Positions 824 to 59,286 of a stretch of DNA of 64,000 nt are shown in pieces. The DNA comes from Candidatus Sericytochromatia bacterium (GTDB lineage: Bacteria; Cyanobacteriota; Sericytochromatia; S15B-MN24; VGJW01), in NCBI GenBank assembly GCA_035285865.1, contig JAYKHS010000017.1, forward strand, positions 1-64,000, written 5' to 3'. A program made the translations under genes and the position numbers. Positions within the stretch are counted from its first letter, which is position 1, and each line of letters starts with the position of its first letter. The notes under the pieces are model-generated. The model made no database searches and had not been told where the DNA came from. It was given only the letters and a program-made list of their open reading frames with translations.

Positions 824-1390
824 GTGGCCAAGCGCAGGTCGGGGTGGATTCTGGGACTGGTGCTCGCGGGTTGTGCGAGCCATCCGGGACAGCCTGCGGC
901 TCCGGGTGCCGAGGGGCGCGCTGCGGAGCGTCGGCTCGTGGTGGATCTTTCCGCCACGACGCCTGGGGCGCGGCAGTTGCAGGCCATCGTGCACCGCTGG
1001 ATCCCTTCGGACGTGGCCCGGTTCCAGGTGCTGCTGGATCAGCGTGGCCCCGACGGTCCCGGTGGCGTGCCCACGTGGCTTTCCCAAGCGAGCGTTGCGG
1101 TGCAACCTGCCTTGGGTCACAGCCAGGCGGTCTTCGGGAACCTTACGGCACAGCGCGCCTATCGGCTGACGGTCCAGGCCTTCACGGCCGATCAACAGCA
1201 CATCAACAGCCAGCGTCCGGTCGTGGTGCCTTTTGATTTCCAGGGTGACAACGACATCGAGGACACACGTGTCCTGGTGGTCGACGTGCCCTTGGACGAC
1301 ATGCCCTTCGCCGGTCAGGCGGGCCTCGCGCTGACACCGCTGGACGGAGCCTTCGTGACGGATGGTCCCGTCACCGGCGGCCCCTTCTGA
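824..1390 (+). CDS. Uncharacterised lipoprotein (candidate pilin-like subunit)
   Basis: Lipobox LAGC; GGAGGG RBS before the GTG at 824; RLVVDL strand then RQLQA. Paralogous to the next gene. Confidence 0.75.
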   Translation: MAKRRSGWILGLVLAGCASHPGQPAAPGAEGRAAERRLVVDLSATTPGARQLQAIVHRWIPSDVARFQVLLDQRGPDGPGGVPTWLSQASVAVQPALGHSQAVFGNLTAQRAYRLTVQAFTADQQHINSQRPVVVPFDFQGDNDIEDTRVLVVDVPLDDMPFAGQAGLALTPLDGAFVTDGPVTGGPF

Positions 1391-1406
1391 GGGTAGGGTG
1401 GCCGTC

Positions 1407-2165: not shown

Positions 2166-2281
2166 CTCCCTTGAAGTCGACGTTAAAGACAGCACCTAAT
2201 CTCCGCCGTCGGCCCACAATCCCGTAGGGGTGGTGGCGCATCGCTTGCTGCCTTAAGGGTAGGTAAGCGACAGGAATCGAC

Positions 2282-6547: not shown

Positions 6548-8149
6548 GTGTTGCGTCAGGCATTCGCTTGGCTTCCTGTCGCCTTGGCGGTGGGCAGCCT
6601 TCTGGCTTGTCGCCCGTCGAACCTGACGGCAAGGCGGGTCACGCCGACCCCGGCGGCCAGCGCGGGGGATGCCGCGCTCCCTCTCGCCAACCAGTTCAGT
6701 GGTGTCGTGTACGACGAGGCTGGCCAGCTCGCGGCCGGGGTGCCCGTCAAGTGTTATCTCGTGGCCAACGACGCTGCGGCACTCATCGCCTCGGGGCCTG
6801 CCGGACTCATCGGAAATGCCGCCGCGACCCGACGCTTGGCCGACGTCACGTCGGGCGGCGTGTCGTCGGTGGGCGAGGTTCGCACGGACGAACTGGGCCG
6901 ATTCCGCCTGCCGGTCACGCAGCCGTCGGCCCGCTACACCATCCTGGCCGAGCGCGATGCCCTGACCAAGGCTCTGATCCTCGCCCAGCCCGTCTCGACC
7001 GGGCTGACGCTCAAGCTGGCCCCCACCGGGACTATCTCGGGACGGGTCCGCAGCGTCTCGCCCGTCGTGAAGGACTTCCTGGGCACGACCGTCTTCCTAC
7101 CTGGCACCACCTACGTCGCTGCTGCCGCAGAGGACGGTTCCTTCACCCTTTCCAACATCCCCGAGGGTATCTATCGCCTGGTGGCCCTGCATCCCGACAT
7201 GGGCCGTGCCTATTCCGAGCGTCTTGTCGTCACTTCGGGCGAGACGACAGCCGTGACCGGGATGGTGCTGGACACGCCAGTACCCGAGATTCGTACCCTC
7301 TCGCCGAACCCGGCGGCCATCGGCGAGCGGGTCGTGGTCACGGGCACGGCCTTCGGGGCGTCACGCGGCGCGCGTGCCGAGGTCAGCATCAATGGTGTGA
7401 TTGCCCCGGGTCTGGAGCTGGCGGATGAGTCCATGGCCTTCGTCGTGCCGATGGGTGCCGGCTCCGGTGAGGTCTCGGCCCGCATCGGCAGCCTGACGGG
7501 GCCGGCGAAGCGGATCGACATCATCGACAACCTGCGCCTCGAACTCTCTCGAGCCGTCTCGTCGCAGGCCACGTGGTCCTGGGCAGGTACGTGGCCGTTG
7601 GCCATGGCTGCCACGCGGAGCATCGTGCTGCAAGGTTCCTCTCGCGGCGGGCCTTTTGCCTCGGTGCAGCCCGGTCCGTCGGGCATTCAGGTCCTGCAAG
7701 AGTCCGGTGCCGCGGTCGTGACCGGGGGCGTCATTCAGCCGCAGGGCGTGGGCAGGGTGCAGTTCCGTGCCCGGCGAGGCGAACTCGAGGCACTCCTGCC
7801 CGTGGTGCTGGTTCCGCAAATCGAGCGTGTCGAACGGGCACCGGGTGCCTTGCCTGTGCTTGCGCCCCTTCCGGTCGTCGGTGCTTCGCCCCTCCCGGGC
7901 TTGTCTCATGCTGTCGTCCTCAAGCCCGTCGCCCGCCATGCGGATGGAACGTCCTACGAGGGGCCGTGGGCGTGGGAGGTCCTGTCGGGCCCCGTGAAGG
8001 TCGACGGGAACGGACGTGTCGAGGCGATGGTGGGCAACTTCGACACCACGGCCCGGGTTCGGGCGCGTCCCCTGGCGGACCCTGACCAGATGGTGGATCT
8101 GACGCTCGAGGTGCGCAGCCAGGGAGAGTTGGCGGTGGAGATCCAGTGA
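6548..8149 (+). CDS. Lipoprotein with AN-repeats, carboxypeptidase-regulatory-like, IPT/TIG and Ig-like domains
   Basis: Lipobox LLAC; TDELGRF; IPT motif PEIRTLSP...GERVVVTGTAFG; ends in the strand GELAVEIQ. Confidence 0.8.
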   Translation: MLRQAFAWLPVALAVGSLLACRPSNLTARRVTPTPAASAGDAALPLANQFSGVVYDEAGQLAAGVPVKCYLVANDAAALIASGPAGLIGNAAATRRLADVTSGGVSSVGEVRTDELGRFRLPVTQPSARYTILAERDALTKALILAQPVSTGLTLKLAPTGTISGRVRSVSPVVKDFLGTTVFLPGTTYVAAAAEDGSFTLSNIPEGIYRLVALHPDMGRAYSERLVVTSGETTAVTGMVLDTPVPEIRTLSPNPAAIGERVVVTGTAFGASRGARAEVSINGVIAPGLELADESMAFVVPMGAGSGEVSARIGSLTGPAKRIDIIDNLRLELSRAVSSQATWSWAGTWPLAMAATRSIVLQGSSRGGPFASVQPGPSGIQVLQESGAAVVTGGVIQPQGVGRVQFRARRGELEALLPVVLVPQIERVERAPGALPVLAPLPVVGASPLPGLSHAVVLKPVARHADGTSYEGPWAWEVLSGPVKVDGNGRVEAMVGNFDTTARVRARPLADPDQMVDLTLEVRSQGELAVEIQ

Positions 8150-10392
8150 TGCTCCGGAACCTGCGCACGTTCCTGTCCTGCTTTCTGCTGGCGGCTTGTC
8201 AGGCGGTGCCGGCACCCTTGTCGGCACCGGCGCGGGAAGTGCCCGCGCAGCCGACTGGACCCCTGACGTCCGAAGCTTCCCCCGAGCGGTCCCGGGAACA
8301 GCCGGCGCCGGTTGCCGTGGCGCCTTTGGCGGCCGAGTTGGCCCCGGCGGGTGATGGCCTCCTGGTCGTCCGGGTGAGGTGGCCGGAGCCCGCCCGATCG
8401 GTCTTGCTGCTGCCCTTCAGCACCCAGCGCCTCGAGTTGGTGCTGAAGACCGCGTCCGGGACCGAACGCGGTCGGGTCAGTCTCGTGCGCCAGCCGGGCG
8501 TGGCCGTGGCAGAGGCCACCATGTCCGCAAGAGTCGGTACGGACCTCGTGCTCGAGGCCGAGGCCCGGGATGCCGCCGACGAAGTCGTGGCCACCGGCCG
8601 CGCCGAGGCCATCGCAGTGGCCGCGCATGTCCGCACGCCCGTCCAGTTGCTCCTCGAGCCAAGCTTCCGGCCGGCCCTGACGCGCATTCGGCCGGCCATC
8701 GCGGGACCCGGTGCCCGTGTCGTGCTGGAAGGCACCTTCCCCGTGGCGGCGAGTCGATCCGTCGGCGTCATCTTTGCAGGAGTCCCCGAGCAGGATGTGA
8801 CGCCGGCGACGGGAGCGCTCGAGGTCACGGTTCCCGAGGGCGTTCGCGAAGGATCGGTCGTCGTCCGGGTGGATGGCGTTCCGACGTTGCAGGGCTTGCC
8901 CTTCCGGCCGCTCGCCCGTGTCGGTTTCGTCGCAACCGGGGACGCCGTGCCTTGGTCCATCGACAATCGCCTTTATGGCTGGGCTGGCGGTGCCTTTCCG
9001 TTCATGCCGACGGGCGTGGTCGGAAGCGGTTCGGTCGAGGTCCTTCCCGATGATGCAGCCCGGGTCGTCTTGTCCGGGGAGGGAGCTTCCGAGGATGGGG
9101 TCTGGCGGCCGACATCGTTGGGTGACGGCGAGGTGAAGGTGACCTCCGGTCATCTGGTTGCCACGGCCGACCTTCGCGTCGGTTACGCGGCGCCACCGTT
9201 GTGGACGCTTCCGGACGGCTTTCGCGCGGATCGCGGCGTCACCATGATCGACACGTCCAGCGGATGGCTTGCCGCTTGGCAGCCCTTGTCCGCCAGCGGC
9301 AAGCAAAGCCTGATCCTACAGGGCATCAGCCCGGACGGCTCGCCGAGCGCTTCCGTGGCCTACAGGATGGACGTCTCTCCGGGGGAGGAGGCGATGGGCC
9401 TTGTCCGAGCGGGGAACTTCGTGGTCCTGGCAACCCGGGCGGATCCGGACACCGCAACGGGTTCGATCTCCATCGCCATGCTGGAACCCGATGGTCGGTT
9501 GCCTACCGATACGACGGGACGGGTCGGCCTCATCTCGCTGCCGGGCGAGGATCTGCGTCTCGGCACGCTCGTGGTGCGCGGGTCGCGGGTGCTGTTGGTC
9601 TGCTACAGCAGGTCCGGTCTCGCGTGGCGTCTGCGCACCTATGCCTTCGAGACCTCGGCCGGTCGGTTGGAACTGGCCGGGACCGGAGCCTTCGGATTCA
9701 CGGAGGCCTCGGGACTGACGCTCGATCCGCCCACCAGCGAGCGGGTCACCGCCGTGCCTTGGGGAGCCGGATACATGGTCTGGGCTTATGGCCTTGCCGG
9801 TGCCAGCCAGCGCCTGCTGCTGCGACTTGCGGTATCGGCCACGGGCAGCGTCGCGAACAACTCTGTCGTCGGGTTGACGACGAGTCCGCGCCTCGCGGCC
9901 TTGGCGCCCCGGCCCGACGGTGGTGCGTGGCTGGTGTCCCTGGCTCCCGCTGGGGGCGAGTTCGAGTTGCACGTGCGTGGCTTCGCGCACCCGACCGGCG
10001 CGCCGGCAGACCTCGATCCGGAGTCCTCCGAGGCGTCCGCGTCGCTGGTTCTTGGGGCATTGCCCGGGCCTGTTCCATTGGTCGGCATCGGCGATGCGCT
10101 CGTAGATCCCGTCCTGCACGCTCCATCGGTGCTGCCCGTGGGGGAGAACCTGCTGGTCGCTGCCACCGTGCGTCGACCCGACGGCAATGGTCACCGTCCG
10201 GTTGTCGTCTGGACCCGGCCTTTGCGCCTCGACAACGGCAGCCTGGCCCTCCTCGCGGCGTCGACGAACCCGCTCGCGGACGAGGGTGCCTCGGTTCGCC
10301 TCGCCAGGGACGCCTCCGGGATCCGGGCGATCTGGCGCACGGCTGCCGGTGAGATCCGGACGTGCCGGATCGTGGTGCCAACGGCGCCCTGA
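8146..10392 (+). CDS. Lipoprotein with IPT/TIG domain and a beta-rich C-terminal region
   Basis: Lipobox LAAC; start overlaps the upstream stop (GTGA); GLLVVRVRWP-RSVLLLP; IPT motif PGARVVLEGTF. Confidence 0.8.
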   Translation: MMLRNLRTFLSCFLLAACQAVPAPLSAPAREVPAQPTGPLTSEASPERSREQPAPVAVAPLAAELAPAGDGLLVVRVRWPEPARSVLLLPFSTQRLELVLKTASGTERGRVSLVRQPGVAVAEATMSARVGTDLVLEAEARDAADEVVATGRAEAIAVAAHVRTPVQLLLEPSFRPALTRIRPAIAGPGARVVLEGTFPVAASRSVGVIFAGVPEQDVTPATGALEVTVPEGVREGSVVVRVDGVPTLQGLPFRPLARVGFVATGDAVPWSIDNRLYGWAGGAFPFMPTGVVGSGSVEVLPDDAARVVLSGEGASEDGVWRPTSLGDGEVKVTSGHLVATADLRVGYAAPPLWTLPDGFRADRGVTMIDTSSGWLAAWQPLSASGKQSLILQGISPDGSPSASVAYRMDVSPGEEAMGLVRAGNFVVLATRADPDTATGSISIAMLEPDGRLPTDTTGRVGLISLPGEDLRLGTLVVRGSRVLLVCYSRSGLAWRLRTYAFETSAGRLELAGTGAFGFTEASGLTLDPPTSERVTAVPWGAGYMVWAYGLAGASQRLLLRLAVSATGSVANNSVVGLTTSPRLAALAPRPDGGAWLVSLAPAGGEFELHVRGFAHPTGAPADLDPESSEASASLVLGALPGPVPLVGIGDALVDPVLHAPSVLPVGENLLVAATVRRPDGNGHRPVVVWTRPLRLDNGSLALLAASTNPLADEGASVRLARDASGIRAIWRTAAGEIRTCRIVVPTAP

Positions 10393-18155: not shown

Positions 18156-19823
18156 TCAGTAGCGGATGCCCGCCGAGATCCCGGCGGCGTTCAACTGCTG
18201 GAAGGGGACGGAACCCCGCCACATGTGGTCCCACGACTGGAAGAGCCGCAGGACGTACTGATCGCGCATCCACTCGAGGCCCAGCTCGCCGGAGGCCCTG
18301 CGGACATCCGGCAGGCCATCGACCAGCGGATCCACGAGCACGAACGTGTACGGCTGGACAAGCCCGCGTGCATACAGACGCAGGGGCCCCCACGGACGGA
18401 CGGACAGGTCGCCGCGAATGAACGGGCCCTGGAAGACCTGCATGTCCGAGAAGAGGAAGTCCTTCGCGATCGGTGTCAGGCTGTGGGTCACGGTGATGTA
18501 GCGAAGGCCGTATCCTGCGCCGATGCTCTCCCGGACCGGGCCTTGCTGCAGGTCCCAGAGCATCGCACCCTGCACGGAGTAGTCGTTGCGGGTGTGGGTG
18601 GAGTTCGGGATCAGGCGGTCGGCAATCGTGAAGGTCTCGAAGGCCCGGACATCGGCCTCGAGCGACCACCACGGCGCCATCGCGTGACGCGCGTAGAAGC
18701 CGAAAGTATTGATGTCGCGGACCGCGGCATCGGCCACTCCGCCTTCCGGATAGTTCTCGAACAGGCCGGTGCGTCCTAGGGTGCCCAAGGTTCGGGACAG
18801 CGGATCCCAGTCCACGTCCGGGGAAATGGAGGCCGAGGATCCGGGCGGACACGTGCACGCACACCCGGATGCTTCCGGTGTCCGGGCGGGTTCTGCGGCT
18901 GTCGGGGGAACAGGCTCTGATGGTGTTGCCATGGCGTCCGGCAGACGATCGGCCGTACGCGAGATCTCGACCAGCCAGATCTTGCCGGACTTGCGGACGA
19001 CAGTCTGGAAGGATCGGGGATCCCGCAGGCCCATGGTCAGGCGTACGGTGCCCCAGCGCTCCTGACCCATCTTGAGTCGTTCGTAGGGGCCGGTGGGAAG
19101 CAGTTTGTCCGTCGTAGGCTGCTGTGCCTTCGCAGGAATGGGGCCGTCTGCGGGAATCTCGACCCAGGCGTGGAGGGGGCGCTCATGCGCGACACGAACC
19201 GTGGGCTCCAGCGGACTACGAACGGGCACCTGCAGGGTTCCGTCGGGCAGGACCTTGGGCAGGCCCACGCGGAAGGTGCTCTGATGGTAGATCTTCCAGA
19301 AGCGCTCGAGCGCCCGGCGATCGAACGTCACGATCAGGCTTTTGCCCTGCACGCGGGCAATCATGCGCATGTCCGGCACGACGCGCATGACCACTCGGCT
19401 GCGCTTGGCGCTGAGTTGCACGGCCAGGGCCTTCATGATGGGTGAACCGGTCTGGCTGCGGATCAGGACATGTCCCGGGGTCAGGGACCCTTCGAGATCG
19501 AGGATCACCGAATCGGGGGCAACTCTACGCAGACGCCATTTCGGTTTGGCGCCGGTCCAGATCAGCGTGGCGGTGTCGCGGGCGGGATTCAGGCTGATCG
19601 ATTCGTATACCGTGGCTGCTCGGATCGCCGCTGAGGGTAAAGGAGTGGCGCTGGCCACCACGGAGCCTGAAGCCACGGATACCGAGGGTTCAGGCGCAGG
19701 CGTCTGAGCCTGAGGCGTCGGACTGGTCAGGTTCGCGCTGGGCGCGGGGTTCGGCGTGGCGTGGGCCGGTCCGGGTGCTGCCATCAGGACCGCGACGAAC
19801 GCGGTCCGGATCAGTCCTTGCAT
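18156..19823 (-). CDS. Secreted protein: AMIN-like domains plus C-terminal outer-membrane beta-barrel
   Basis: Signal peptide ending AHA; VILDLEG...SRVV AMIN-like pattern; alternating strands ending GISAGIRY. Start moved to MQGL at 19823. Confidence 0.6.
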   Translation of the reverse strand: MQGLIRTAFVAVLMAAPGPAHATPNPAPSANLTSPTPQAQTPAPEPSVSVASGSVVASATPLPSAAIRAATVYESISLNPARDTATLIWTGAKPKWRLRRVAPDSVILDLEGSLTPGHVLIRSQTGSPIMKALAVQLSAKRSRVVMRVVPDMRMIARVQGKSLIVTFDRRALERFWKIYHQSTFRVGLPKVLPDGTLQVPVRSPLEPTVRVAHERPLHAWVEIPADGPIPAKAQQPTTDKLLPTGPYERLKMGQERWGTVRLTMGLRDPRSFQTVVRKSGKIWLVEISRTADRLPDAMATPSEPVPPTAAEPARTPEASGCACTCPPGSSASISPDVDWDPLSRTLGTLGRTGLFENYPEGGVADAAVRDINTFGFYARHAMAPWWSLEADVRAFETFTIADRLIPNSTHTRNDYSVQGAMLWDLQQGPVRESIGAGYGLRYITVTHSLTPIAKDFLFSDMQVFQGPFIRGDLSVRPWGPLRLYARGLVQPYTFVLVDPLVDGLPDVRRASGELGLEWMRDQYVLRLFQSWDHMWRGSVPFQQLNAAGISAGIRY

Positions 19824-20914
19824 AGATTGGAAACCGAGTTGTCGACGATGACGGGCAGGCGTTGAAGGACGCGCTTGCCGCTTGCGGCGTGTCCGATGAA
19901 ATCCAGATTGGTGGGGCCCAGAGGCATGGGCCACGAGTCGAAACGACCCCTCCACGACGTGGGGGCGTCGACGGTGCAGAGCAGTCGCCGCGACGGGATG
20001 ATGGTCCAGACCTCGCAGAGCGTGACGTCGGAGGGCATGCCGGTCAGGGCCACGTCCACCAGGCCCGAGATGCGCTGGGCTTCCTTGGCAACGCCATCAT
20101 TCGTGCCCACGGCCGAGATGCGGAAGACCAGGGACGCGTCGTCCGGCCTCTCGAAGATGTTGTTGTAGTCGTCGGCCACTTGTTCGTCACTGGAACCGAG
20201 CTTGTCCAGAATCGAGCTCGGCGGCGCAGGAGTGGACCCCGGTGCGGGCGTGGTACCCGGCGAGGGAGCGGGGGTGGCCTTGAGCGCTTCGGGGTCGGTG
20301 GGCTTGAGTGTCTCTGGGAGCAAGGGTGCGATCTCTTCGGGGGGCAGCGTGCCGAGGCGCTCGCGCAGATCCTTCTCGAACTCGGCCAGCTTGTCCGGCT
20401 TCACGAGGTCCAGCAGATCGTTGCGGCCCGAAAGTGCCGGATCCGGCTTCAACAGGCCATTTGCTGCGATCTTGTCGACCAGTAGGGACGAGGCCAGGTC
20501 CACGCGGACGCACTCGACGCTGGTCGTGGGGAAGACCAGTTTCTCCACGGTCTGAGGGGTGCTGGTGCCTGTCATGCTGATGCGCAGGATGCTGGCACCG
20601 CCTCTGGGTACGTCATCGATCTGGAAGTTGCCGTCGGCGTCCGCGATCGTCACGGAGACCGTAGTCTTGAAGTCGGTGTCCAGCAGTACCACCCTTGCCC
20701 CGGCCGCGGGCATCTCGCTCAGGGCCTTGCCATCGGCGGAGGCCACCGGGATCCTGGCGCGTCCGATGAGCCGCGCCGTACCGTCCGTCAGGATGGCGGA
20801 GAACTGTTCGTTGACGTTGAGCAGGCTGGGCTTGGGCAAGACGGGCGACGCGCATGCGGCAGCCAAAGCCAAGGCCATCAGGCCCGGAAGGCGCGGCAGG
20901 AACCGGGCGCTCAC
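19811..20914 (-). CDS. Uncharacterised lipoprotein with carboxypeptidase-regulatory-like domain
   Basis: Lipobox AAAC; AGARVVL...ADADGNF; start and stop overlap both neighbours. Confidence 0.75.
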   Translation of the reverse strand: MSARFLPRLPGLMALALAAACASPVLPKPSLLNVNEQFSAILTDGTARLIGRARIPVASADGKALSEMPAAGARVVLLDTDFKTTVSVTIADADGNFQIDDVPRGGASILRISMTGTSTPQTVEKLVFPTTSVECVRVDLASSLLVDKIAANGLLKPDPALSGRNDLLDLVKPDKLAEFEKDLRERLGTLPPEEIAPLLPETLKPTDPEALKATPAPSPGTTPAPGSTPAPPSSILDKLGSSDEQVADDYNNIFERPDDASLVFRISAVGTNDGVAKEAQRISGLVDVALTGMPSDVTLCEVWTIIPSRRLLCTVDAPTSWRGRFDSWPMPLGPTNLDFIGHAASGKRVLQRLPVIVDNSVSNLCKD

Positions 20915-23613
20915 TGAAGCCCTGCCTGTTCCGTCGACCCGAGGGGTGATGCGTTGTTGAGTCCCCCGAACAACTGCAGGAAGTTGCCCACGATAGCGGC
21001 GGCCTGGAAGCCACGGGCCGTACCCAGCGTGACTCCGGGAACAACCGAGAAGGAGCCGAGTGTACCGTCGGCGGCGATCGTTGCGACCTCGACCGAGTTG
21101 ACGCCCGTGTAACTAGAGGTCTGGGTTCCGCCGATCACATAGAGCTTGTTGCCCGACACGACCAGCGCCGGTGCGGCCCGAGCGACGTTCAGGCTGTTGG
21201 CGTAGGTCGAGAAGTTCCCCGTGGCTTCGTCATTCGTGGTGTCGATGGCGCAGCGCTCGATCGAGGCCAAGGCCGATCCGTTGCGGTCCGACTGACCGCC
21301 GATGGCGTAGATGTAGCTGCCCAGAACCACCAGGCCCATCCGTGCACGCGCCGTGACGAGGCCCGGACCGTTGTTGCCGAAGCCGCCGATATCATAGGTG
21401 TTCGAATTGAGCGAGCCGGTGCGGCACGCCGAGACGGCGCTGTTTCCGTCGAGGCCGCCCACCAGGTAGAGGTTTGTGCCTACCGTGACGGCGTTTGCAC
21501 CGGAGACCTGTGCGACCGAGAGGCTGCCGTCGGCAAAGGTGCCGAGCGAGCCGTCCGCATTGACAGGCGCCTTGATGACCTTGGGGGCATTGTTCGGTGC
21601 GCTGCTGGGCAGGCCGCCCGCGAAGACCCACAGGTTGGTTCCGAGGACGCCCGAGCTGAAGTTGACGCGACCGTAATCCAGATTTCCGCTAGAGGAAAAT
21701 GAGCCGAGGGCACCAGCCGAATCGATCGTCGCCCGTTGCACGGTCGAGAGAATGCTGACGTCCGCCGCGCAGCCGCCACCGCTCACGATGCCGGCGCCGC
21801 AGCCGCCAAAGACGTTGACGGATGCGCCCAGCACGGCTGCCCCGTTCCCGAATCGCGGGGTGAAGGTCGCCGTTCCGGCGCCGAACGTGGACAGGTTGCC
21901 TGAACCGTTCACTGAGGTGAACTCGACATTGCCCAGCGTGGTCCCGGCCGCACCTGTGCCACCGACAACGTGCAGACTGTCCCCATTGACCACCGCGGCA
22001 AAATCCGCCCGAGCCGTGGCCAGCGTGACCCCGGCCATGGTGGCGAAGGAACCGGGACCCGAAACGCCGAGCGTGCTGCTCTCGACGCTGGTCACGGGGC
22101 TGTTACCCGTGGTTCGCCCGCCGATGACGACGTATTTGGTGCCCATGAACTGCCCGACGGCACCTTCGCGAGCGGTCTGAAGGGCGACCGTGCTGGTGCT
22201 GAAGGCGCCGAGCGATCCGTCCGCGTTGACGGCAGCCGATTCGATGCTGGACAGCGGACCCGAGGCGCCCTTGCCGCCGATCAGGTAGATGCGCCCCCCG
22301 AAGAGCAGGGGCAGCGTCCGACTGCGTGCCGTGACCAGCGTACCGCTGACGCTTGAGAAGGAGCCCGTCAGGACTCCGGACGAATTGATCGGAGCCCGCT
22401 CGATCGAGTTCCGGGGCGTGCCGCCGGATTCGCCCCCGAAGACGTAGAGGTAGTCGCCGATGACGGCAGCGGCCGGGTAGGCACGTGTCGAGCCCATCGT
22501 CTGGCTGGCCGAGAAGGCTCCGGGAGAGTCGTCTCCCTGCCATGTGCTGGTCTCGGTGCTGGCCAGTGCCGAGCCTGCCGCCTGGCCACCGATGGCCAGG
22601 ATGGAACCACCGTAATTGATCCATGCGGCGCCTTCCCGCGCGGCCACAAGTGTCTGAGCCGTGGTGGCAAAACTCTGCATGGTGCCATCGGCATTGCGCA
22701 GGGCGCGATATACGGTATTGGCCGCGGTCGAGGCATTCGCTCCACCCAACACGTAGGTGAACTGACCCCGCTGCAGCAAGCCGTGGCCTGCCCGAGCGGC
22801 GGGCAGGATCGGAGCGGTTCGGGCCAAGGTTGCCTGGTTGTAGAACTTGGCAAAGGGCAAGCTGAGCGCCTGCGTGTATTCGGCGATCCGGATGGACTGG
22901 CTGTTGGACGTGCCCTCAGGGTCCGTGAAGGAGACTGTACCGGTGGTCGCACTGCACGGCACCACGAAATAGGCCTGACGGGACGACAGGACCACAAGCG
23001 GCGTCGTTGCGTTCGAGGGCACGAACGTGACGGTGGCCGGCGCCTCGAAGTGGCCCTGGACGTAGATGACGCTGCCGCATTCGTAGAGTTCATCCGGGAA
23101 GTTGCGCCAGTCCGACAGGACGGGCGACATCAGCGTCAGCGTTACCTCGTTGTTGCCCGAGAGCAGGGTGATTCCGGCCTGATAGCCCTTGGCCACCTTG
23201 TTGCCCGTCCCGTTCGCGCCGTCGTAGAGTGCGGCGTTGATTGCGTAGCCGGAACCGGACTTGAGGCTGGTGAAGGCCGCCGTGACGGTGCTGCCACCCG
23301 CCTGGTTGACGGTACGGGTGATGGTGCTGGGCAACAGGGTGGTGTCGCCATTGGTCAGCGACATCACGATGCTGGCCCAGCTGCCCGGCAGGGTCTGGCT
23401 GGAACGGGCAGGCAGGCGAACGGAGACCGTGAGGCCCGAAGGCTGGCCGCGGACGATCCTGTAGGGCGTCTCGGCGGAGCCGAGGCGCGTGACCGTTGTC
23501 CCGAGGTGGGGCTGGGGCACCCAGCATCCCACCAGGGACAACACGATCGCGATGAAGGGCCAGAGGACGTACAGTGGTCCTCGCCCCGTCTCCCGGGGCC
23601 GCACTTGGGACAA
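20911..23613 (-). CDS. Lipoprotein with IPT/TIG and about two Kelch beta-propellers
   Basis: Lipobox LVGC; roughly 12 YhhGG Kelch repeats with RAxhNxDGxLGxF spacers. Confidence 0.85.
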   Translation of the reverse strand: MSQVRPRETGRGPLYVLWPFIAIVLSLVGCWVPQPHLGTTVTRLGSAETPYRIVRGQPSGLTVSVRLPARSSQTLPGSWASIVMSLTNGDTTLLPSTITRTVNQAGGSTVTAAFTSLKSGSGYAINAALYDGANGTGNKVAKGYQAGITLLSGNNEVTLTLMSPVLSDWRNFPDELYECGSVIYVQGHFEAPATVTFVPSNATTPLVVLSSRQAYFVVPCSATTGTVSFTDPEGTSNSQSIRIAEYTQALSLPFAKFYNQATLARTAPILPAARAGHGLLQRGQFTYVLGGANASTAANTVYRALRNADGTMQSFATTAQTLVAAREGAAWINYGGSILAIGGQAAGSALASTETSTWQGDDSPGAFSASQTMGSTRAYPAAAVIGDYLYVFGGESGGTPRNSIERAPINSSGVLTGSFSSVSGTLVTARSRTLPLLFGGRIYLIGGKGASGPLSSIESAAVNADGSLGAFSTSTVALQTAREGAVGQFMGTKYVVIGGRTTGNSPVTSVESSTLGVSGPGSFATMAGVTLATARADFAAVVNGDSLHVVGGTGAAGTTLGNVEFTSVNGSGNLSTFGAGTATFTPRFGNGAAVLGASVNVFGGCGAGIVSGGGCAADVSILSTVQRATIDSAGALGSFSSSGNLDYGRVNFSSGVLGTNLWVFAGGLPSSAPNNAPKVIKAPVNADGSLGTFADGSLSVAQVSGANAVTVGTNLYLVGGLDGNSAVSACRTGSLNSNTYDIGGFGNNGPGLVTARARMGLVVLGSYIYAIGGQSDRNGSALASIERCAIDTTNDEATGNFSTYANSLNVARAAPALVVSGNKLYVIGGTQTSSYTGVNSVEVATIAADGTLGSFSVVPGVTLGTARGFQAAAIVGNFLQLFGGLNNASPLGSTEQAGLQ

Positions 23614-31149: not shown

Positions 31150-31919
31150 CGGGCCACCTCGATGGTCTGCCACGTGTCAAAGACCGTCGTGTTGACGGCC
31201 CCCTTGAGCAGGCTGGGAGGCAACGAGAGGGCGATGGCGAGGACGTTACGGCCAGCAGCCACGTCCGTGCCCTGTCCAGGCGAGGCGAAGGGGGCCGGCG
31301 CGGCACCGCCAGCCTCGAGACCGTCGAGGATCGAGAGGAATTTCGCGCGGTCGTGGAACGAGGGATCCTCCCGGAGGCCGGCAAAGGCCTTGAAGGAAAC
31401 CTTGGCTTGGCTGCCCAGGGTGAGTTCGGCGACGTGCACGAGGGCTCCCGTACCGACAGGCGGCGAAGTCAGCAGGGGTTCACCGTCGGTGTTCACCGTG
31501 ACGGAGGCGGTTGCTGCCGGGGCTGCGTGCTGGATAGCCGTGATGCGCATGGCCTGCTGGGTCCCCGACACGGCTCCGAAGTTGACACTGATCGTCAGGT
31601 CGGCCGTGCCCGGCGGCGTGGTGGTCGGGCCGCCCGTGACCCGGCTGACATGCAGGTTGTAACGCGCGTTGGTCGGGAAGGAGGGGACTCCGTTCAACGT
31701 CGTGCCCGGTGCCACGGTCATGATGGCGTCGATGTCGTTCGTGACGCTGCCGCCCTCGGCCTGTTCCGCGTCGCGGAACACGAAGAGATCCACCAGGTCG
31801 GTTTCGCGCTGGCTGGAGGCAATGGGACCGTCGAAGGCATCGAAGGCATGGGCCCGGTGCGCGGCGAACCCGGCAACCAGGACCCCGACGAGGGCCGTCG
31901 GCAGGGCATGTTGGCGCAT
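31146..31919 (-). CDS. Secreted DUF4331 family protein (N-terminal half)
   Basis: Signal peptide ending [28 protein letters not shown]. Start moved to MRQH at 31919. Confidence 0.8.
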
Positions 31920-37468: not shown

Positions 37469-37541
37469 GGTGCTGTCCCCAACGTACCCCAAGCAGCACC
37501 GAGGGTCGGCACTCTTGGTGCCGACCCTCGGTATGTTGCCG

Positions 37542-48343: not shown

Positions 48344-48350
48344 TTCTGGC

Positions 48351-53493: not shown

Positions 53494-53496
53494 GGT

Positions 53497-53750: not shown

Positions 53751-54887
53751 TCAGGGCGAGACGACGATTGTAGCCGTGGCCACGACGTTACCCGTCTTGA
53801 CCTCGATCGTGCCTGTGCCGGCATCCGTGAAGGCGATGCTGCTGGTTGCGACTGGTGTTGAGGATCCGCCCCCGCCCCCGCCTCCACCTTGCCCACCCGC
53901 AACGCTACCTGTAACTGTCGTGGTTGTCAGGAACGGTTCGAAGTTTCCGATGCTGCCGGCGGTCGGCAGGCCTGATGGGCCCTGACCTCCGGCGGCCCCG
54001 CCGCCGCTGCCGCCGGCTGTCGCTGCCTGGACATTGGTCATGTTCCAGAAGAGGTTGACACCAGACAGGGCTGAACCGTTGCTGCCCTTGGCCACGACCT
54101 GAAAACTTGCCGTGCCGTTTTTGGCGAGGGTGCCGCCGGTCTGAGTCAACTCCAGAGCCGTGACGGTCTGGAACATGTCTCCGCTTCTGACGGTGCGCGG
54201 GCCATAGGTCAGGATGACGGAGTCGCTGGTGGCTCCCTCGGGCACCGGGAACTCCAGAGATGTGCCGGATTGCGAGACCTGCAACAAGGCGCTGGAGACC
54301 GGTATGCCGCCGATGCTGACGCTGAGCCCGTCCTTGCTGGTCGGCAGATTCACGCCCGTGACCTTGATGTAGGCACCTGCCCCTGCGGCTGGGGGGTTGA
54401 TGAGCGTGATGGCCGGAACCTTGGTTTCCTGCATCGTCAGGCGGAGGGCGATTTTCTGATTTGGGACCAGCTTGGCCGTTGCCGTCCCGATGCCGACCTC
54501 GGTGTTGTTCGCGTCGAATGCCTGAACGTTGACCGTGACGTTTCCGGTGACGGGAACCGTGAGGTCTGCGATCGTGAGCATCGAGGTCGGAGCACCATCG
54601 CGATTCACGGAACCCTGTCCGAGGGTATTGCCCGAGCTGTCCTTCACCACCGCATCGATCCGGACGGCCTCGACAGGGATGGCCGCCACGGTTCGGTCGG
54701 GCCAACGAATGGTAAGGGTCAGGCTTGCCTTTTCGGTCGGTGTTGCCTGTTCGATCTCATTGCCAATGCCAGTCACTTCAGCAGGCGGAGCGTGCAGGGG
54801 GATACCGCCGGCGCAAGCCGAGAGGCCGGCCGCAAGAATCGCAGAGGCCGTGAAGGCTGCAGGATGTTGAAGGTTGCGCACGGTCAT
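53751..54887 (-). CDS. Lipoprotein with IPT/TIG and Ig-like domains
   Basis: Lipobox LSAC; SLTLTIRWPDRTVAAIP; IPT motif PAITLINP...IKVTGVNL. Start MTVR overlaps the upstream stop. Confidence 0.8.
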   Translation of the reverse strand: MTVRNLQHPAAFTASAILAAGLSACAGGIPLHAPPAEVTGIGNEIEQATPTEKASLTLTIRWPDRTVAAIPVEAVRIDAVVKDSSGNTLGQGSVNRDGAPTSMLTIADLTVPVTGNVTVNVQAFDANNTEVGIGTATAKLVPNQKIALRLTMQETKVPAITLINPPAAGAGAYIKVTGVNLPTSKDGLSVSIGGIPVSSALLQVSQSGTSLEFPVPEGATSDSVILTYGPRTVRSGDMFQTVTALELTQTGGTLAKNGTASFQVVAKGSNGSALSGVNLFWNMTNVQAATAGGSGGGAAGGQGPSGLPTAGSIGNFEPFLTTTTVTGSVAGGQGGGGGGGGSSTPVATSSIAFTDAGTGTIEVKTGNVVATATIVVSP

Positions 54888-55663
54888 TCCACCACCAGAT
54901 CGATGCCGCCGACTGCCTTGACCTCGATATTGGCAGTCGCCGAGGGGACTGTCAGATCGGCCGGGTAGGCCAGATCGTCTGCCGGGATGGCGATGATCTC
55001 GGTGGCACCACGGCCTACCGCAGTCACCAGACCGTTGGCGTCCACGGTGGCGACCAGCGTGTTGCGGCTGCGCCACTTTGCGCGGCTGTCCTTGAGGCCG
55101 TTGTTGAGCGTGACCTCAGCGGTGAGCTTGAGGGTTGTCGGCTTGCCCAAGCTGTTCACGCCATCGGGTGCCGGCTCGTAGATGACCCTCGGTAGGTTGC
55201 CAACTGGGCCATTGCCGACCAGAAGGCCGATGCCCATGGACTCGAAGGGGGCGTAAGGGTTGTTGTTGGACACAGGGGCAACGGTCGGTGAAGGTCCGCT
55301 CGCCCCCGGACTGGCTGGCGTGCTCGTGGCCGTCGGCGTCGCATTCGATCCGGGGATCGGCGTAACGTTGGTCGCGGGTGACGCGGTGGGCTGGGTGCCG
55401 TTGCTGCCACCGTTCGTGTTGCTATCAGGGTTGCCTGGCGTTGGCGTCGCGGTCGGGGCAGGACTCCGGTCCGTGATGCCGCCATTGACGGTGTCCTGGC
55501 CTGCGGGTCTCGGGGTCGGGCTCTTGGTGGCTGTCGTCGTAGGCTTGCGTGTTGCAACTGCACCCGTTGTCGGGGAAGTGGTGGCGCCCGTGCATCCTGG
55601 GACGTGGACGGCCAATATGAGCCCGCCCACGGCCAAGCTCAACGCGAGTCTTGATGAGGTCAC
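54884..55663 (-). CDS. Lipoprotein with Pro/Thr linker and Big_2 Ig-like domain (candidate anchor subunit)
   Basis: Lipobox-like VPGC; KWRSRNTLVATVDANGLVTAVGRG; ends GGIDLVVE. Confidence 0.8.
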   Translation of the reverse strand: MTSSRLALSLAVGGLILAVHVPGCTGATTSPTTGAVATRKPTTTATKSPTPRPAGQDTVNGGITDRSPAPTATPTPGNPDSNTNGGSNGTQPTASPATNVTPIPGSNATPTATSTPASPGASGPSPTVAPVSNNNPYAPFESMGIGLLVGNGPVGNLPRVIYEPAPDGVNSLGKPTTLKLTAEVTLNNGLKDSRAKWRSRNTLVATVDANGLVTAVGRGATEIIAIPADDLAYPADLTVPSATANIEVKAVGGIDLVVE

Positions 55664-55681: not shown

Positions 55682-58228
55682 TCAGTTGAGGGTGGCGGTC
55701 TGCACGATGTTTCGATAGTTGCCGTCGTAGTAGGAGAACATGTGGATCTTGCTCCCTACGACCACAAGGTTGGCATAGATGCTGCCCGAGGGCGCAGTGG
55801 GCATCTGCTCCCAGTTGCCAATGTTGTCGTTTGCATCGATTGGGGCGCGGTACACGAGCCGGGTTTGCCAGCTGTTGTAGCTCGAACTGTAGCTGTAGAA
55901 GATGTAGACATAGTTGCCTATGACAGCACAGTTCGAGGCATACATGTCATATGGAAGGGTGCGATTTAGGTAGCTGAACGAACTTGTTAATGCACCGCTA
56001 CTATCGACGCTAGCTCGGTGCATGTATCCGTGATGGCTCCAGCAATTGCTGCTGTATCCCCCCAGCTTGTAAACGTATTGGCCCACATGCACCAACTGCG
56101 TGCCATAGTCGAGGCACGGCAGACGGCCGACGACTTGGAACTGCTGGAGGGTTCCATCGGCGTTGATTCGGGCCGACTGAACGGCGTCTGTGTTCCAGTG
56201 GCCACCAAAGATGTAGACATATTCCTTGATGCGCATCGCATAGGTCACGTAATAGACCTGCTGTGCCATGGTGATGGGCGCGGCAGAAAAGTTCTGGGCG
56301 ATTGATCCATCGGCGTTGACTTGTGCTCGAATTACCTGATTGTATGGGTAGCTTCCGCCATTCGACGGATATCCGGCGTAGTTATAAAGAAATCCGCCGA
56401 TGAAGTGGGGGTTGTGGCTTGGGTTGTCGCCGTTATGCATGTTCCAAGTCCAGGGTTGTGAGATGCCATTCATTGTCGTAAAGGCACCAAGGCTACCATC
56501 GTCACCCAGTTGCGTGCGTTCGACATCGTAGTTGTAGCCTTGGCTATTGTCGTATCCGCCCATCGCGTACAGGAATCGATCCTTCACGGCCAGAATGCCG
56601 GTCATGTGGGACTTCGCTGTCACGGCAGAGGTTGTCCAGTTGGTGATGGTGCCGCTCAGGACAGCAAAGTTACCCGGATTGGCTGACCCACCGGACTTGC
56701 GAGCAATACTGAGCGCTCCGGTTGTTGTCGTCGGCACGACGGCTTCAATCCGGGTGTCCGACCAGAGGTTCACGGGACAGTCGACATTATTGATTCGAAT
56801 GGTGCCCTGAGATGAACCGAAATTCGTTCCTGTCACGACAAATTCGGCCCTGGGTGCACCGGTCCGTGGGAACCAGTCCTTGATGACTGGCCGGAACTCC
56901 ACGGTCACATTCAGCTCGTTGCTGCTGCCCGCGCTGGTCCGGACGCTGATGGGGCCCTTGGTCGCGTTTTCAGGCACCTTGAAGACCAGAAACTGCTCGT
57001 CGCAAGTGGAAGGCGTGGTCGTCACGTCGCCGACGACCACCGTATTGCCCGAGGGGACGTTCGAGAAGCCGAAGCCCAGCAAGGTCACTTCCTCACCCGG
57101 CTGGTAGAAACTGCTTGCCGGGAACCAGCGCGAAATCTTGAACACCGGATTGGCGCGTCCAGCATAGAAGGTCATGCCCGTGACCGCGCCACGCGGCGTA
57201 GTCACGACCAACGAACCCGTCGCGGCGTCATTGGGCACGATGACGTAGAGGCGTTCGGTGCCACCGGCCACGATGGCACCCGGGGAGCTGCCCCCGAAGG
57301 TGACCAGATTCTGTGAGGGTGTGGGGCTGAAGCCCTTGCCCCGGATTTCGAGCGTCTGGCCGGGGCGAGCCGAGTCCGTGCTCTGGTAGGTGATTGAGGG
57401 GGCGACGTCCGACAGGGATCCGACAGGATCGAGATTGGCTGTGAGGTAGGCCAGCACGTCGGTGGCCATACCCAGGATCTGGGCGTCGGTGAAGCCCGTC
57501 GGCGCGGCCGGGGAGCGATTCAGGATGGGCGGCTTGACCGAGGCGTTGATCTTGTTCATCAAGGTAGCCGGGTCGAAGGTGGAAGGTGCCAGCTGGGCCG
57601 CGATGCAGACGGCCGTCGTCAAGGAGCTGATGCTGATGGTGCCGCCCGAGAGCGACTCCCAGGTCGAGCCGTTCCAGCGGACCAGCGTCCGGAAGCGCAC
57701 CACCGGGCTACCGGGCATGTGACCGTTGAGCCCCTTGGATGCCTCGAGGTAGTACGCTCTGCCTGTGTCGGGAATGAAGCCGTTCATCGAGAGGGTGAAC
57801 TGTCCTCGGCCGTTCGATATGGTGCTGGCTGCCGCCGAATTGCTCTCGGCGTCGATGAGCGAGATGGTGGCGAACGAGACCACTTCGGCGACGGACGCCT
57901 GGATCTTGCGGCTGACCTCGGCCGTGACGTCCACGCCGCCTTCCAGATCGGCAATCTTCTGGGACCGCCATTGCTTCAGGAACTCGGCCGACGTCAGTTG
58001 TCCCGGTTGGACGGGCTTTGGAGCCAAGGCAGCCGCCTGGACGTCCGGGGCCTCGCCGGCAGTGGTCGGGTTGCCGGTGTTGACGGGTTCGCCCCGCTGG
58101 ACCATCTGTTGGCAGCCAAGCACCAGCGCGAGCGCACCGGCGACGGCCACCCGCAGGATGCGCGCTGCGCCGTGGGTCGCCTTGGAGGAGTCGTTCACGA
58201 TGCGGTCTCCTGATTCCTGGGTGGTCAA
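55682..58228 (-). CDS. Lipoprotein with three IPT/TIG domains and a C-terminal Kelch propeller
   Basis: Lipobox VLGC; IPT motifs (GKGFS, GFGFS, GTNFG); YxxGG Kelch repeats. Confidence 0.85.
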   Translation of the reverse strand: MTTQESGDRIVNDSSKATHGAARILRVAVAGALALVLGCQQMVQRGEPVNTGNPTTAGEAPDVQAAALAPKPVQPGQLTSAEFLKQWRSQKIADLEGGVDVTAEVSRKIQASVAEVVSFATISLIDAESNSAAASTISNGRGQFTLSMNGFIPDTGRAYYLEASKGLNGHMPGSPVVRFRTLVRWNGSTWESLSGGTISISSLTTAVCIAAQLAPSTFDPATLMNKINASVKPPILNRSPAAPTGFTDAQILGMATDVLAYLTANLDPVGSLSDVAPSITYQSTDSARPGQTLEIRGKGFSPTPSQNLVTFGGSSPGAIVAGGTERLYVIVPNDAATGSLVVTTPRGAVTGMTFYAGRANPVFKISRWFPASSFYQPGEEVTLLGFGFSNVPSGNTVVVGDVTTTPSTCDEQFLVFKVPENATKGPISVRTSAGSSNELNVTVEFRPVIKDWFPRTGAPRAEFVVTGTNFGSSQGTIRINNVDCPVNLWSDTRIEAVVPTTTTGALSIARKSGGSANPGNFAVLSGTITNWTTSAVTAKSHMTGILAVKDRFLYAMGGYDNSQGYNYDVERTQLGDDGSLGAFTTMNGISQPWTWNMHNGDNPSHNPHFIGGFLYNYAGYPSNGGSYPYNQVIRAQVNADGSIAQNFSAAPITMAQQVYYVTYAMRIKEYVYIFGGHWNTDAVQSARINADGTLQQFQVVGRLPCLDYGTQLVHVGQYVYKLGGYSSNCWSHHGYMHRASVDSSGALTSSFSYLNRTLPYDMYASNCAVIGNYVYIFYSYSSSYNSWQTRLVYRAPIDANDNIGNWEQMPTAPSGSIYANLVVVGSKIHMFSYYDGNYRNIVQTATLN

Positions 58229-59286
58229 GGTTCGAAAGCCCCGCCTACGGCGGAAGGCACGTTGCCGGACAGTTGGCCGCCGGGAAGCCGGCTGCCGTCT
58301 CCGGTCGGCGTGTTCTGACCGCTCACGGGAGGGATGATGTTGATGCTCATGGTCGCGTTGCCAGACGCGTTTATGGCGGAAAGGGTCCCCGAGGTGGCTC
58401 CGACCGGCACGCGCACCTTGATGCCATTGGCGACGGTTTCCAGCACTGGAGTCACCAGCGTGCCGAACTTGACTGTCGTCTGGAAGCCGTTTTCCTGCAA
58501 CTTGGTGCCCAGCAGCGTCACGATGCCGCCTTCGGGCGCCGGGTTGGGGGACATGGCCAGCAGGCGCAGCTCGTTGATGGCCGAGGCCGCGCCACCCTTG
58601 AGCTTGTAGACGCCGGCGTCAAGGATGATCGCTTCCACCGGGTCCCGGTCTTCGCCCATGGCCTGTCGCGCCAAGGCATTGACCGTGTCGTACTTCGCCT
58701 GCGTGACGCCGATGTCGGGGTTCGGGACCAGGATCAGGTTGTAGCCGTCGTCCAGGAAGATGTCGATCAGCAGCCGACCGTCGATTCCCTCGAAGCCCGC
58801 GATGATGGAAAGGGCCGTCGTGCCGGGGGTGATGGCGAGCGCGCCCTGGCTCATGGAGTAGAAGCCTGTGCTTGCCTTCAGGAAGACGGTTCTTACGCGG
58901 ACGGCAGCCACCCCGGGTGCATTCGAGGAAAGCCCTTTCACGGCCTCGAGGATGTAGGGCGTTTCGAGGGCCAGCTTGTTGGTGACCTCCGCGGTGAAGT
59001 TGAATTCGCCCTGACTGTTCGTCAGCGTGGTGGCAATCGTTTCGCTGGACCCCATGTCGATGATGGACACGGTGGCGGCCAGTGCCACGTCGCGGATGCC
59101 GTATGCCTGAGCTTGTCGCTCCTGAGGGAATCGAACCTGCCCTGACAAGGCTGTAGAGGCCATGTGGTCACGATCGTTCGCGGATGCTGGCCCGACCGTG
59201 GCGCAGGCCGGTTGCAGGAGCGACAGCATCAACACCGCCACCATCGCCAGCATGCGCTGGACGGGGGGCGGGCGAACAGGGGTCAT
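58225..59286 (-). CDS. Lipoprotein with one IPT/TIG domain; N-domain paralogous to 55682-58228
   Basis: Lipobox-like QPAC; shared AThShID, YhLEAxKGL, PG...VRxRT, TTA and DPV motifs. Confidence 0.8.
   Translation of the reverse strand: MTPVRPPPVQRMLAMVAVLMLSLLQPACATVGPASANDRDHMASTALSGQVRFPQERQAQAYGIRDVALAATVSIIDMGSSETIATTLTNSQGEFNFTAEVTNKLALETPYILEAVKGLSSNAPGVAAVRVRTVFLKASTGFYSMSQGALAITPGTTALSIIAGFEGIDGRLLIDIFLDDGYNLILVPNPDIGVTQAKYDTVNALARQAMGEDRDPVEAIILDAGVYKLKGGAASAINELRLLAMSPNPAPEGGIVTLLGTKLQENGFQTTVKFGTLVTPVLETVANGIKVRVPVGATSGTLSAINASGNATMSINIIPPVSGQNTPTGDGSRLPGGQLSGNVPSAVGGAFEP

Follow-up and report, generated by a model that had tools for sequence, protein, structure and literature searches.

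A candidate donor-strand and acceptor-domain module that may couple pairs of envelope lipoproteins in a Sericytochromatia genome

Type V pili, described in PMC13655056 as unique to the class Bacteroidia, consist of lipoproteins with two transthyretin-like domains, an anchor strand at the N-terminus and, in the loop which follows, a site of cleavage at Arg (Arg46 in FimA). Their stalk is FimA/Mfa1, their anchor FimB/Mfa2, and Mfa3-5 and FimC-E are accessory pilins. The C-terminal donor strand takes the place of the acceptor's anchor strand, the anchors have no cleavage site and the tips have no donor strand (PMC13655056). Chaperone-usher pili, TasA, and the archaeal thread and cannula filaments likewise show a sandwich completed or extended by a neighbour's strand; they have an N-terminal donor strand or identical filament-forming subunits and are not lipoprotein pairs. 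The stretch analysed here (the window) comprises positions 1-64000 of contig C17 of a Candidatus Sericytochromatia bacterium, whose genome has 2.8 Mb in 32 contigs and is 83% complete. The window contains three gene pairs, p6548-p8146, p23617-p20911 and p54884-p53751 (Table 1), in which a donor lipoprotein with a terminal strand is followed by an acceptor lipoprotein with an N-terminal beta-sandwich. They show two conserved motifs, a strict gene pairing, a donor tail which mimics the first strand of the acceptor and, in p23617, an unfolded tail. Such two-gene, occasionally three-gene, donor-strand/acceptor-domain modules rather likely couple envelope lipoproteins, the tail presumably binding the acceptor physically, and the coupling would probably give pairs rather than fibres. 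An earlier reading of this DNA from its letters alone, here the sequence-only reading, had proposed a type V-like fibre system in four clusters and ten proteins; the pattern was found in three clusters, with six proteins, and not in the remainder. Among the papers listed in the literature searches, no title or abstract reports a lipoprotein donor-strand system for Sericytochromatia, for other Cyanobacteriota or outside Bacteroidia.

As in type V pili, the subunits are lipoproteins, with a lipobox in all six module proteins. The acceptors share an N-terminal domain, family A, which is a beta-sandwich of ~110 amino acids located after the lipobox and a linker of 20-65 residues. Unlike type V pilins, which show an N-terminal and a C-terminal domain, the acceptor part is this single domain, and a linker of that length between the lipidated Cys and the first strand is a further difference. 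Family A opens with the strongly conserved motif G-x-L-x-V-x-[VI]-[RK]-W-P-x-R-x-x-Q-x-[IL]-P, which fits p8146, p53751 and p20911; p23617 has a variant without WP. As in type V pili, the first beta-strand is directly before a loop with a conserved Arg. Judged from the module loops alone, W-P-x-R-x-x-Q-x-I-P seems conserved beyond the need of a cleavage site, which would be another difference. In the AlphaFold 2 (AF2) model of p8146 residues 51-188, made with an alignment of 50 sequences, the domain is a confident sandwich (predicted local distance difference test, pLDDT, 84.6), the fold includes the first strand (pLDDT ~87) and the WPxR loop is irregular (~73).

The family A profile was seeded from four window copies and rebuilt from 55 sequences. 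It collects 59 distinct N-domains from the window and from the fetched loci of relatives; this genome has 13, ten of them strong. WP is found in 31 of the 59 domains, all 31 with an R within four residues after it, and the pattern R-x(1-9)-[QA]-x-[ILVM]-P fits 51 of the 59. Since the remaining eight have a loop Arg by eye, the Arg is present in all 59, and its conservation in homologues, a check proposed with the sequence-only reading, is borne out. The profile detects family A in 44 of the 46 other class genomes, where 10-14 scored copies per genome are frequent, and in none of 254 genomes belonging to other families of the phylum. In a library of 1.8 billion proteins, taken as representatives at 50% identity, 2634 match at E<=1e-3 and 520 at E<=1e-10; part of these matches are giant generic tandem-Ig proteins, aligned only from profile position ~36 on and without the N-terminal motif. 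A global sample was formed by 60 of the best 150 library matches, picked for one or two matched stretches near the N-terminus. The lipobox pattern fits 52 of these 60, and the eight misses are four variant lipoboxes recognised by eye and four truncated gene calls. Three library proteins were considered as donor-acceptor fusions and rejected: P0049 and P0052 are generic tandem-Ig proteins with internal family A-like matches, and P0107 is an ordinary N-terminal family A lipoprotein. This very small sample contained no natural fusion.

The donor tail is a strand of eight residues, [GA]-x-[LIV]-x-[LIV]-x-[VI]-[EQD], placed exactly before the stop codon; the final Ig-like domain, with its last strand, and then a Gly/Ala turn precede it. 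A donor strand at the extreme C-terminus is a feature of type V pili also, unlike chaperone-usher pili, which have an N-terminal donor extension. When the pattern [GA]-x-[LIVMAW]-x-[LIVMF]-x-[LIV]-[EQDR]-stop was applied to the open reading frames (ORFs) of at least 150 amino acids, 11 of 9104 ORFs in this genome were found to bear a tail, and seven of the 11 are directly upstream of seven of the ten strong family A genes. Four of these seven pairs are additional ones, located on contigs C28 and C30. When the window and the relatives' loci are taken together, 35 of 58 distinct family A genes have an upstream neighbour with a tail; among the other 23, 13 are p23617-type genes, first in their operon, four are at locus edges and six are other cases. 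The junctions in the window overlap or abut (TGATG, ATGA and a gap of three nucleotides). The donor architectures are unrelated to each other and comprise the p6548-type, the p54884-type, the small proteins of C28 and C30 and the p23617-type; among relatives, the C-terminal domains of p6548-type show the tail in 17 of 17 cases. Most donors are not homologous to their acceptors, and in this the module, with donor and acceptor mostly from different protein families, is unlike type V pili. The donor-only p54884 has no Arg-motif domain, as the sequence-only reading expected of an anchor, and p6548 is donor-only in the same way. The claim that the downstream partners have adhesin-like heads also stands, the acceptor-only proteins carrying Kelch or TIG according to Pfam. 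These donor-only proteins without Arg site are comparable to the anchors of type V pili, and the acceptor-only proteins to the tips. In the AF2 model of p23617, the sole donor modelled, residues 291-299 have a pLDDT <50 directly after the last strand of the model (277-289), and the C-terminal strand does not fold back into its own domain.

The mimicry of the first strand was scored by comparing the last eight residues of each donor with every 8-mer of its cognate acceptor and recording the rank of the first strand. For p6548 and p8146 the first strand ranks 1 of 393 8-mers. For p23617 and p20911 it ranks 8 of 393 (2, 2, 3 and 2 in orthologues), and for p54884 and p53751, 8 of 336 (3 and 2 in orthologues). 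Among 30 unique pairs, the first strand has rank 1 in 11, is in the top 3 in 20 and has a median rank of 2 of ~240-393 windows; with shuffled tails, rank 1 is reached in 0.6% and the top 3 in 1.8%, with a median rank of 158. For the permutation test of cognate versus non-cognate pairs, the strand was located by WP or [RK]LP, and five pairs with neither were left out. The BLOSUM score is 12.5 for cognate and 9.0 for non-cognate pairs, a difference reached by 0 of 10000 permutations (n=30) and, in a non-redundant set of 16, by 82 of 10000. The charge is inverted at the last position, with E/Q/D in the tail and R/K in the strand. A covariation of charge between position 6 of the tail and position 6 of the strand (E with R) was noted by eye in five pairs, four of them orthologous, and was discarded as evidence. 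A scan of the last 25 residues with 8-mers was also rejected, being too permissive: true pairs fail in it as well, and the claims on p58225 and p809 gain nothing from it.

A second array of donors and acceptors was observed in L043 (G000:C28:188000-207900, minus strand). It shows a donor of 261 amino acids (...VTVEVR), an acceptor of 448 (...ASATVSIIP), an acceptor of 449, a donor of 241 (...AAMDVVVE) and then an acceptor of 674. The penultimate 8-mer of the Pro-ended acceptor, ASATVSII, best matches the first strand of the next gene, ASLTLSVR (rank 1), so that Pro-terminated ends such as ATATIVVSP of p53751 may be a second kind of donor.

One complex was predicted, between untruncated p8146 residues 51-188 (alignment of 50 rows) and the last 110 amino acids of p6548 (17 rows). 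The interaction prediction score from aligned errors (ipSAE) was 0.39, 0.43 and 0.51 (median 0.43) and the best of three controls gave 0.00, which the tool calls weak support; the runs share at least 55% of contacts, and the partner has a pLDDT of at least 78. Of 157 solved complexes, 116 pass the mark of the tool, as do 2 of 215 mismatched pairs; at values <=0.60, only 18 of these solved complexes pass it, together with both passing mismatches. Because gene pairing and mimicry made binding likely beforehand, the score was counted as mild support.

In the comparison of folds, the top matches of the acceptor domain are secretin pilotin lipoproteins (ExsB 2yjl; 5wec), with Z 9.2, a root mean square deviation of 2.6 and 94 residues aligned. 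The next ones are 4qdg (Z 8.5), 3up6 (Z 8.3-8.5), Mfa3 5nf4 (Z 8.3-8.6) and 3gf8 (Z 7.7), followed by Mfa2 5nfi (Z 7.3) and the FimA prepilins 6jzk and 6jzj (Z 7.2-7.5). The PDB titles of these Bacteroidales matches name an adhesin, cell-adhesion or fimbrial protein, and the structures are presumably members of the type V pilin family. The acceptor sandwich aligns with the pilin N-domains at Z 7.1-8.6, a possible further likeness to type V pili; the alignments begin at pilin residues 30-39 and so take in the anchor strand. In the same lists, Z is 7.2-8.1 for FN3, GH2 and CBM sandwiches; Foldseek reaches an E value of 9e-3 at best, and the modelled likeness to type V pilin N-domains, tied with that to generic sandwiches, is suggestive and not diagnostic. 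For the two-domain model of p23617 (pLDDT 67.8), Foldseek gives generic tandem-Ig proteins at a template modelling (TM) score of ~0.2 and FimA 4q98 at TM 0.21 alongside single-chain antibody fragments, which does not discriminate. The likeness to secretin pilotins is one of fold only, both being small lipoprotein sandwiches; pilotins, unlike the module, have no paired donor gene and no WPxR motif, and there is no secretin nearby.

The module is best described as a lineage-specific, minimal pairwise system which works like type V pili and is not a member of that family. It shows no detectable sequence homology to pilins, and the type V pilin Pfam families (fimbrillin, Mfa) gave no match in the 12 candidates at E<=0.01, nor in p8146, p53751 and p23617 rescanned at E<=1. 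The negative results on sequence family and a self-polymerising stalk place it outside type V, and the domain architecture appears to do the same. A stalk subunit matching itself, as in type V pili, was not seen: in 11 of 11 orthologues of p23617-type, the tail ranks its own first strand at 9-52 of 233-256. By this sequence proxy there is no evidence of polymerisation, and the fibre proposed in the sequence-only reading is not supported. Of the analogous or remotely homologous assembly proposed there, the pairing logic of the three family A pairs is supported. The lineage also differs, being Sericytochromatia instead of Bacteroidia. Pfam scans of 37 window ORFs gave no match to a PapD/chaperone or usher family.

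In the proposed mechanism, the donor lipoprotein would be a stalk or tether (Big_2, TIG, CarboxypepD_reg or a Pro/Thr spacer) with an unsatisfied amphipathic C-terminal strand, and the co-translated acceptor lipoprotein would present a flexible linker, the ~110-residue sandwich and a large head (Kelch, NHL-like or TIG). The docking site would be formed by the first strand of the acceptor and the W-P-x-R-x-x-Q-x-I-P loop. Binding of the tail in trans would join anchor and head in a 1:1 complex, or form a short chain where the two parts are combined in one protein. Two modes of binding can be envisaged. In the first, possible though doubtful, the tail would, in the manner of type V pili, take the slot of the first strand once the chain is cut at the Arg, and the head would be released from the lipid anchor that it carries. 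This replacement is suggested by the mimicry, by the conservation of the Arg and by donors which resemble stalks and have long spacers. In the second, as possible and as doubtful as the first, the tail would add beside the first strand, in register, and would be pinned by the WPxR loop, with its terminal E/Q/D and carboxylate facing the R/K of the strand and the loop Arg. This addition is suggested because AF2 keeps the first strand in place and the complex was scored with an untruncated acceptor, and also because of the inverted charge at the last position, the conservation of the loop, seemingly beyond the need of a cut site, and the Tyr which takes the place of Arg in some members.

PDZ-like beta-augmentation reads C-terminal peptides. 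The module resembles it in a strand located exactly at the C-terminus, a conserved Arg in the adjacent loop and complementary charges (E/Q/D of the tail, R/K of the strand), and, because the strand ends the protein, its free carboxylate could be read in a PDZ-like manner. Unlike PDZ, the module has a different fold and shows no evidence of a carboxylate-binding loop.

It is conceivable, though less likely than not, that Sericytochromatia evolved a protease-mediated strand exchange, independently or from a very remote common ancestor, which makes no fibres and hands heads to a lipoprotein stalk. The cut would be made at the conserved Arg that follows the first strand, the C-terminal strand encoded by the upstream gene would fill the vacated slot, and large beta-propeller heads would exchange the lipid anchor of their own for a dedicated lipoprotein stalk. 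Were this exchange true, strand exchange between lipoproteins would be a general principle of envelope assembly beyond Bacteroidia. The coupling by modules, if true in either mode, would be a second, independent case of envelope assembly by a donated C-terminal strand, its sequence rule (tail plus WPxR domain) would predict lipoprotein partners, and it would open a first way into the architecture of the cell surface in an uncultured, non-photosynthetic lineage that is sister to the photosynthetic cyanobacteria. The module is class-wide and present in multiple copies, and has the logic of type V in a minimal pairwise form with unrelated sequences.

Several points weigh against the coupling of lipoproteins by such modules, or against its mode with cleavage. 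Six family A genes have no donor upstream. A few of the tails counted, such as ...ATVSIEVQ and ...ATVSVTVD, may be the last strand of Big_2, and they rank poorly in mimicry (12-14). The pairs are related by descent, and in a non-redundant set of 13 the cognate excess is reached by 424 of 10000 permutations; from the non-redundant permutations, the excess is real at the level of the family and modest at the level of the pair. The complex score is in the weak band, which by the tool's account is more often wrong than right unless the interaction was likely beforehand, and the output consists of scores, with no structure or contact map placing the tail in the domain. AF2 holds the acceptor's own first strand in place, so that no empty groove is evident. 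In the global sample, 53 of 60 proteins have WP, with the loop Arg in 47 of the 53 and Tyr in four. The four members with W-P-x-Y-x-x-Q (P0016, P0059, P0074 and P0080, the last an N-terminally truncated gene call) have 300-355 amino acids, and an Arg-specific protease could not cut there. The gene context, as read from the sequence, appears to fit either face, the cell surface or the periplasm.

An explanation without any trans interaction is unlikely. The strand would then be a sorting, quality-control or cis-folding element, such as a hairpin on the last Ig domain of the donor or an export or protease signal, and the gene pairs would be inherited duplicated operons. Amphipathic C-terminal strands act as signals in other systems. 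The expansion of paralogues which duplicate as blocks, the weak complex prediction and an AF2 acceptor domain complete without donor agree with this explanation. It does not account for a tail which at least three unrelated donor architectures bear only when a family A gene follows (true of seven of the 11 tail ORFs), and which copies the cognate first strand specifically and not other strands of the acceptor nor the donor's own first strand. Moreover, AF2 does not fold the p23617 tail back in cis, and all three complex controls were 0.00.

A true type V-like fibre is quite improbable. It would have Arg-cut subunits which lose the lipidated first strand, head-to-tail strand exchange into filaments, an anchor bearing lipid and an adhesin at the tip. 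Every type V-like feature of the module applies equally to it, p23617 and some relatives of ~330 amino acids (L021, L023) carry both a family A N-domain and a terminal strand, and type V pilin N-domains are among the best fold matches, from the anchor strand on. The tail of p23617-type, however, is unlike its own first strand and resembles the one in the Kelch protein encoded downstream (ranks 2-8). An acceptor domain is missing from the donors p6548 and p54884, and a donor tail from the acceptors p8146, p20911 and p53751, so that the window encodes pairs. The pilin architecture of N- and C-terminal domains and a type V Pfam match are lacking, the fold Z values are tied with those of FN3 and GH2 sandwiches (Z 7.4-8.1), Pfam gave no protease gene in the clusters scanned, and Arg is replaced by Tyr in the four global members. 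Chance, with generic beta-strand patterns of Ig-rich proteins, does explain two of the five pairs claimed and the loose Arg sites of p2282 and p6548, and for the three family A pairs it is extremely improbable, being excluded by the genome-wide enrichment, the shuffled-tail control and the class-wide conservation.

Table 1. Genes and sequence elements of the three donor/acceptor modules and of the p23617 cluster in the window
Feature	Positions	Strand	Description
p6548 donor-only lipoprotein, 533 aa	6548..8149	+	LLAC, LIxNxAAxL repeats, CarboxypepD_reg, Big_2-like C-terminal domain, free tail; Pfam
p6548 donor tail GELAVEIQ-stop	8123..8146	+	Stop TGA overlaps the start of the next gene (GTGATG)
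p8146 acceptor lipoprotein, 748 aa	8146..10392	+	LAAC (Cys18), Pro/Ala linker, family A N-domain at residues ~66-178
p8146 first strand and Arg loop GLLVVRVRWPEPARSVLLLP, residues 71-90	8356..8415	+	AF2 strand at p8146 70-78 (model residues 20-28)
p23617, 299 aa, first gene of the operon	23617..24516	-	Family A-like N-domain without WP, second sandwich domain, free tail
p23617 donor tail AAIELKLQ-stop	23620..23643	-	Next gene begins 3 nucleotides downstream; L-x-L-Q end conserved
p20911 acceptor lipoprotein, 900 aa	20911..23613	-	Family A N-domain, then Kelch beta-propellers; Pfam Kelch_1 E 5e-24
p20911 first strand and Arg loop SGLTVSVRLPARSSQTLP, residues 59-76	23386..23439	-	
p54884 donor-only lipoprotein, 259 aa	54884..55663	-	Lipobox, Pro/Thr/Ser/Asn-rich spacer of ~120 aa, Big_2 (Pfam E 5e-9), free tail
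p54884 donor tail GGIDLVVE-stop	54887..54910	-	ATGA overlap with p53751 start; orthologue tails AAIDLVVE, GAVDLVVE
p53751 acceptor lipoprotein, 378 aa	53751..54887	-	Family A N-domain, TIG, C-terminal Ig-like domain; start is ATG 54887, not 55076
p53751 first strand and Arg loop ASLTLTIRWPDRTVAAIP, residues 54-71	54675..54728	-	
p19811, third lipoprotein of the p23617 operon	19811..20914	-	CarboxypepD_reg-like match below the Pfam cut-off; start overlaps p20911 stop
p18156, signal-peptide protein ending ...GIRY, fourth gene of the operon	18156..19823	-	Atlas features and synteny
p15473, 887 aa, ends ...HGIAW, last gene of the cluster	15473-18136	-	Atlas: widespread hypothetical family with 5'-nucleotidase C-terminal domain, score 0.97-0.98

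The lipoboxes were read directly from the sequence, without a dedicated lipoprotein predictor; a crude lipoprotein caller overlooked seven of the 12 candidates and was excluded from all statistics. A signal peptide ending in a lipobox Cys was read in every protein named in the sequence-only reading, as claimed there: LAGC in p809 and p1362 (its 824 and 1407), LTGC in p2282, LLAC in p6548, LAAC in p8146, LVGC in p20911, LASC in p23617, LSAC in p53751, VPGC in p54884, VLGC in p55682 and QPAC in p58225. The additional candidate p19811 likewise has a lipobox. At E<=0.01, Pfam yields generic beta domains only: CarboxypepD_reg and WD40 in p2282, CarboxypepD_reg in p6548, Kelch in p20911, TIG in p53751 and p55682 and Big_2 in p54884; p809, p8146, p23617 and p58225 show no match, and beyond its N-domain p8146 has a large region without Pfam match.

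All-against-all blastp of the candidates divides the starts, which had been read as one strand-then-Arg motif with ten members, into three N-domain families, each common to neighbouring genes. Family A joins p8146 with p53751 (E 1e-12) and p20911 with p23617 (E 5e-8), family B, which is CarboxypepD_reg-like and has eight members in this genome, joins p58225 with p55682 (E 3e-11), and family C joins p809 with p1362 (E 1e-8). The sites RRTLS of p2282 and RRLAD of p6548, listed as looser matches, are inside a common region of LIxNxAAxL repeats (E 1e-15) and do not belong to the motif. Of the five upstream/downstream pairs claimed, those of p6548, p23617 and p54884 with their acceptors hold, and the pairs 58225-55682 and 824-1407 do not: these have no terminal strand, their C-termini are conserved within the genus only, and the best local matches are located elsewhere than in the first strand of the next protein. 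Chance or paralogy accounts for two of the five pairs and for two of the ten motifs.

Proteins p2282 (2282-4456, plus strand) and p6548 share N-terminal LIxNxAAxL repeats, followed by CarboxypepD_reg. In relatives, proteins with these repeats number roughly 1-16 per genome and usually have 700-900 amino acids. Family B (58225-59286 and 55682-58228 on the minus strand of the window; L048-L052) has expanded hugely, reaching up to 61 matches in a single related genome. Its small members, of ~320-400 amino acids, end soon after P-x-[VI]-[SG]-G, which is presumably the usual start of the CarboxypepD_reg strand, and are often directly upstream of a large family B gene. Their C-termini could be a candidate second class of tail.

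The p23617 operon belongs to a cluster of five genes, p23617-p20911-p19811-p18156-p15473, in which p19811 and p18156 start inside the preceding gene and p15473 begins ~20 nucleotides after the p18156 stop. Homologues of p23617 are present in 12 of 41 related genomes, and homologues of the first four genes are grouped in eight loci, which come from six genomes of the order. Three loci keep the gene sequence p23617-p20911-p19811, with p18156 next in two of them, and p19811 and p18156 are adjacent in five more; other loci are rearranged. A p18156 homologue is inside the cluster in seven of the eight loci, and one partial p15473 match adjoins the cluster in one locus. For p18156, the Atlas feature match is 0.94, with 190 of 256 features in common, and the matched cluster has AMIN in 100% and OMP_b-brl in 44%. 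As a lead only, p18156 probably consists of AMIN domain(s) and a small outer-membrane beta-barrel, and the AMIN match suggests a peptidoglycan-binding domain fused to that barrel. Membership of a cluster with p18156 and p19811 points to a putative complex at the outer membrane or the wall. The Atlas family of p15473 has no bearing on the donor/acceptor module.

The candidate genes form separate clusters in the window, which has a guanine plus cytosine content of 63-70%, and housekeeping genes are found between them: a DEAD-box helicase, sdhCAB, short-chain dehydrogenases and a response regulator. The gene after p53751 (52066-53496, minus strand) matches VWD below the threshold (E 1.5e-3; 19.3 bits, cut-off 22.9) and has a GDPHF motif; long Ala/Glu/Lys repeats resembling a coiled coil come next, and no lipobox was seen in it. 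At 30304-31173, on the minus strand, a lipoprotein has collagen-like G-x-y repeats and the C-terminal part of DUF4331. A protein of 1582 amino acids encoded at 32744-37492, on the minus strand, contains DUF4011, an AAA_11/AAA_12 helicase, an MTES_1575 restriction-endonuclease-like domain and DUF3320. The region 41070-44473, on the plus strand, encodes a VIT and VWA protein of 786 amino acids, whose stop overlaps the start of a D12-class N6-adenine methyltransferase.

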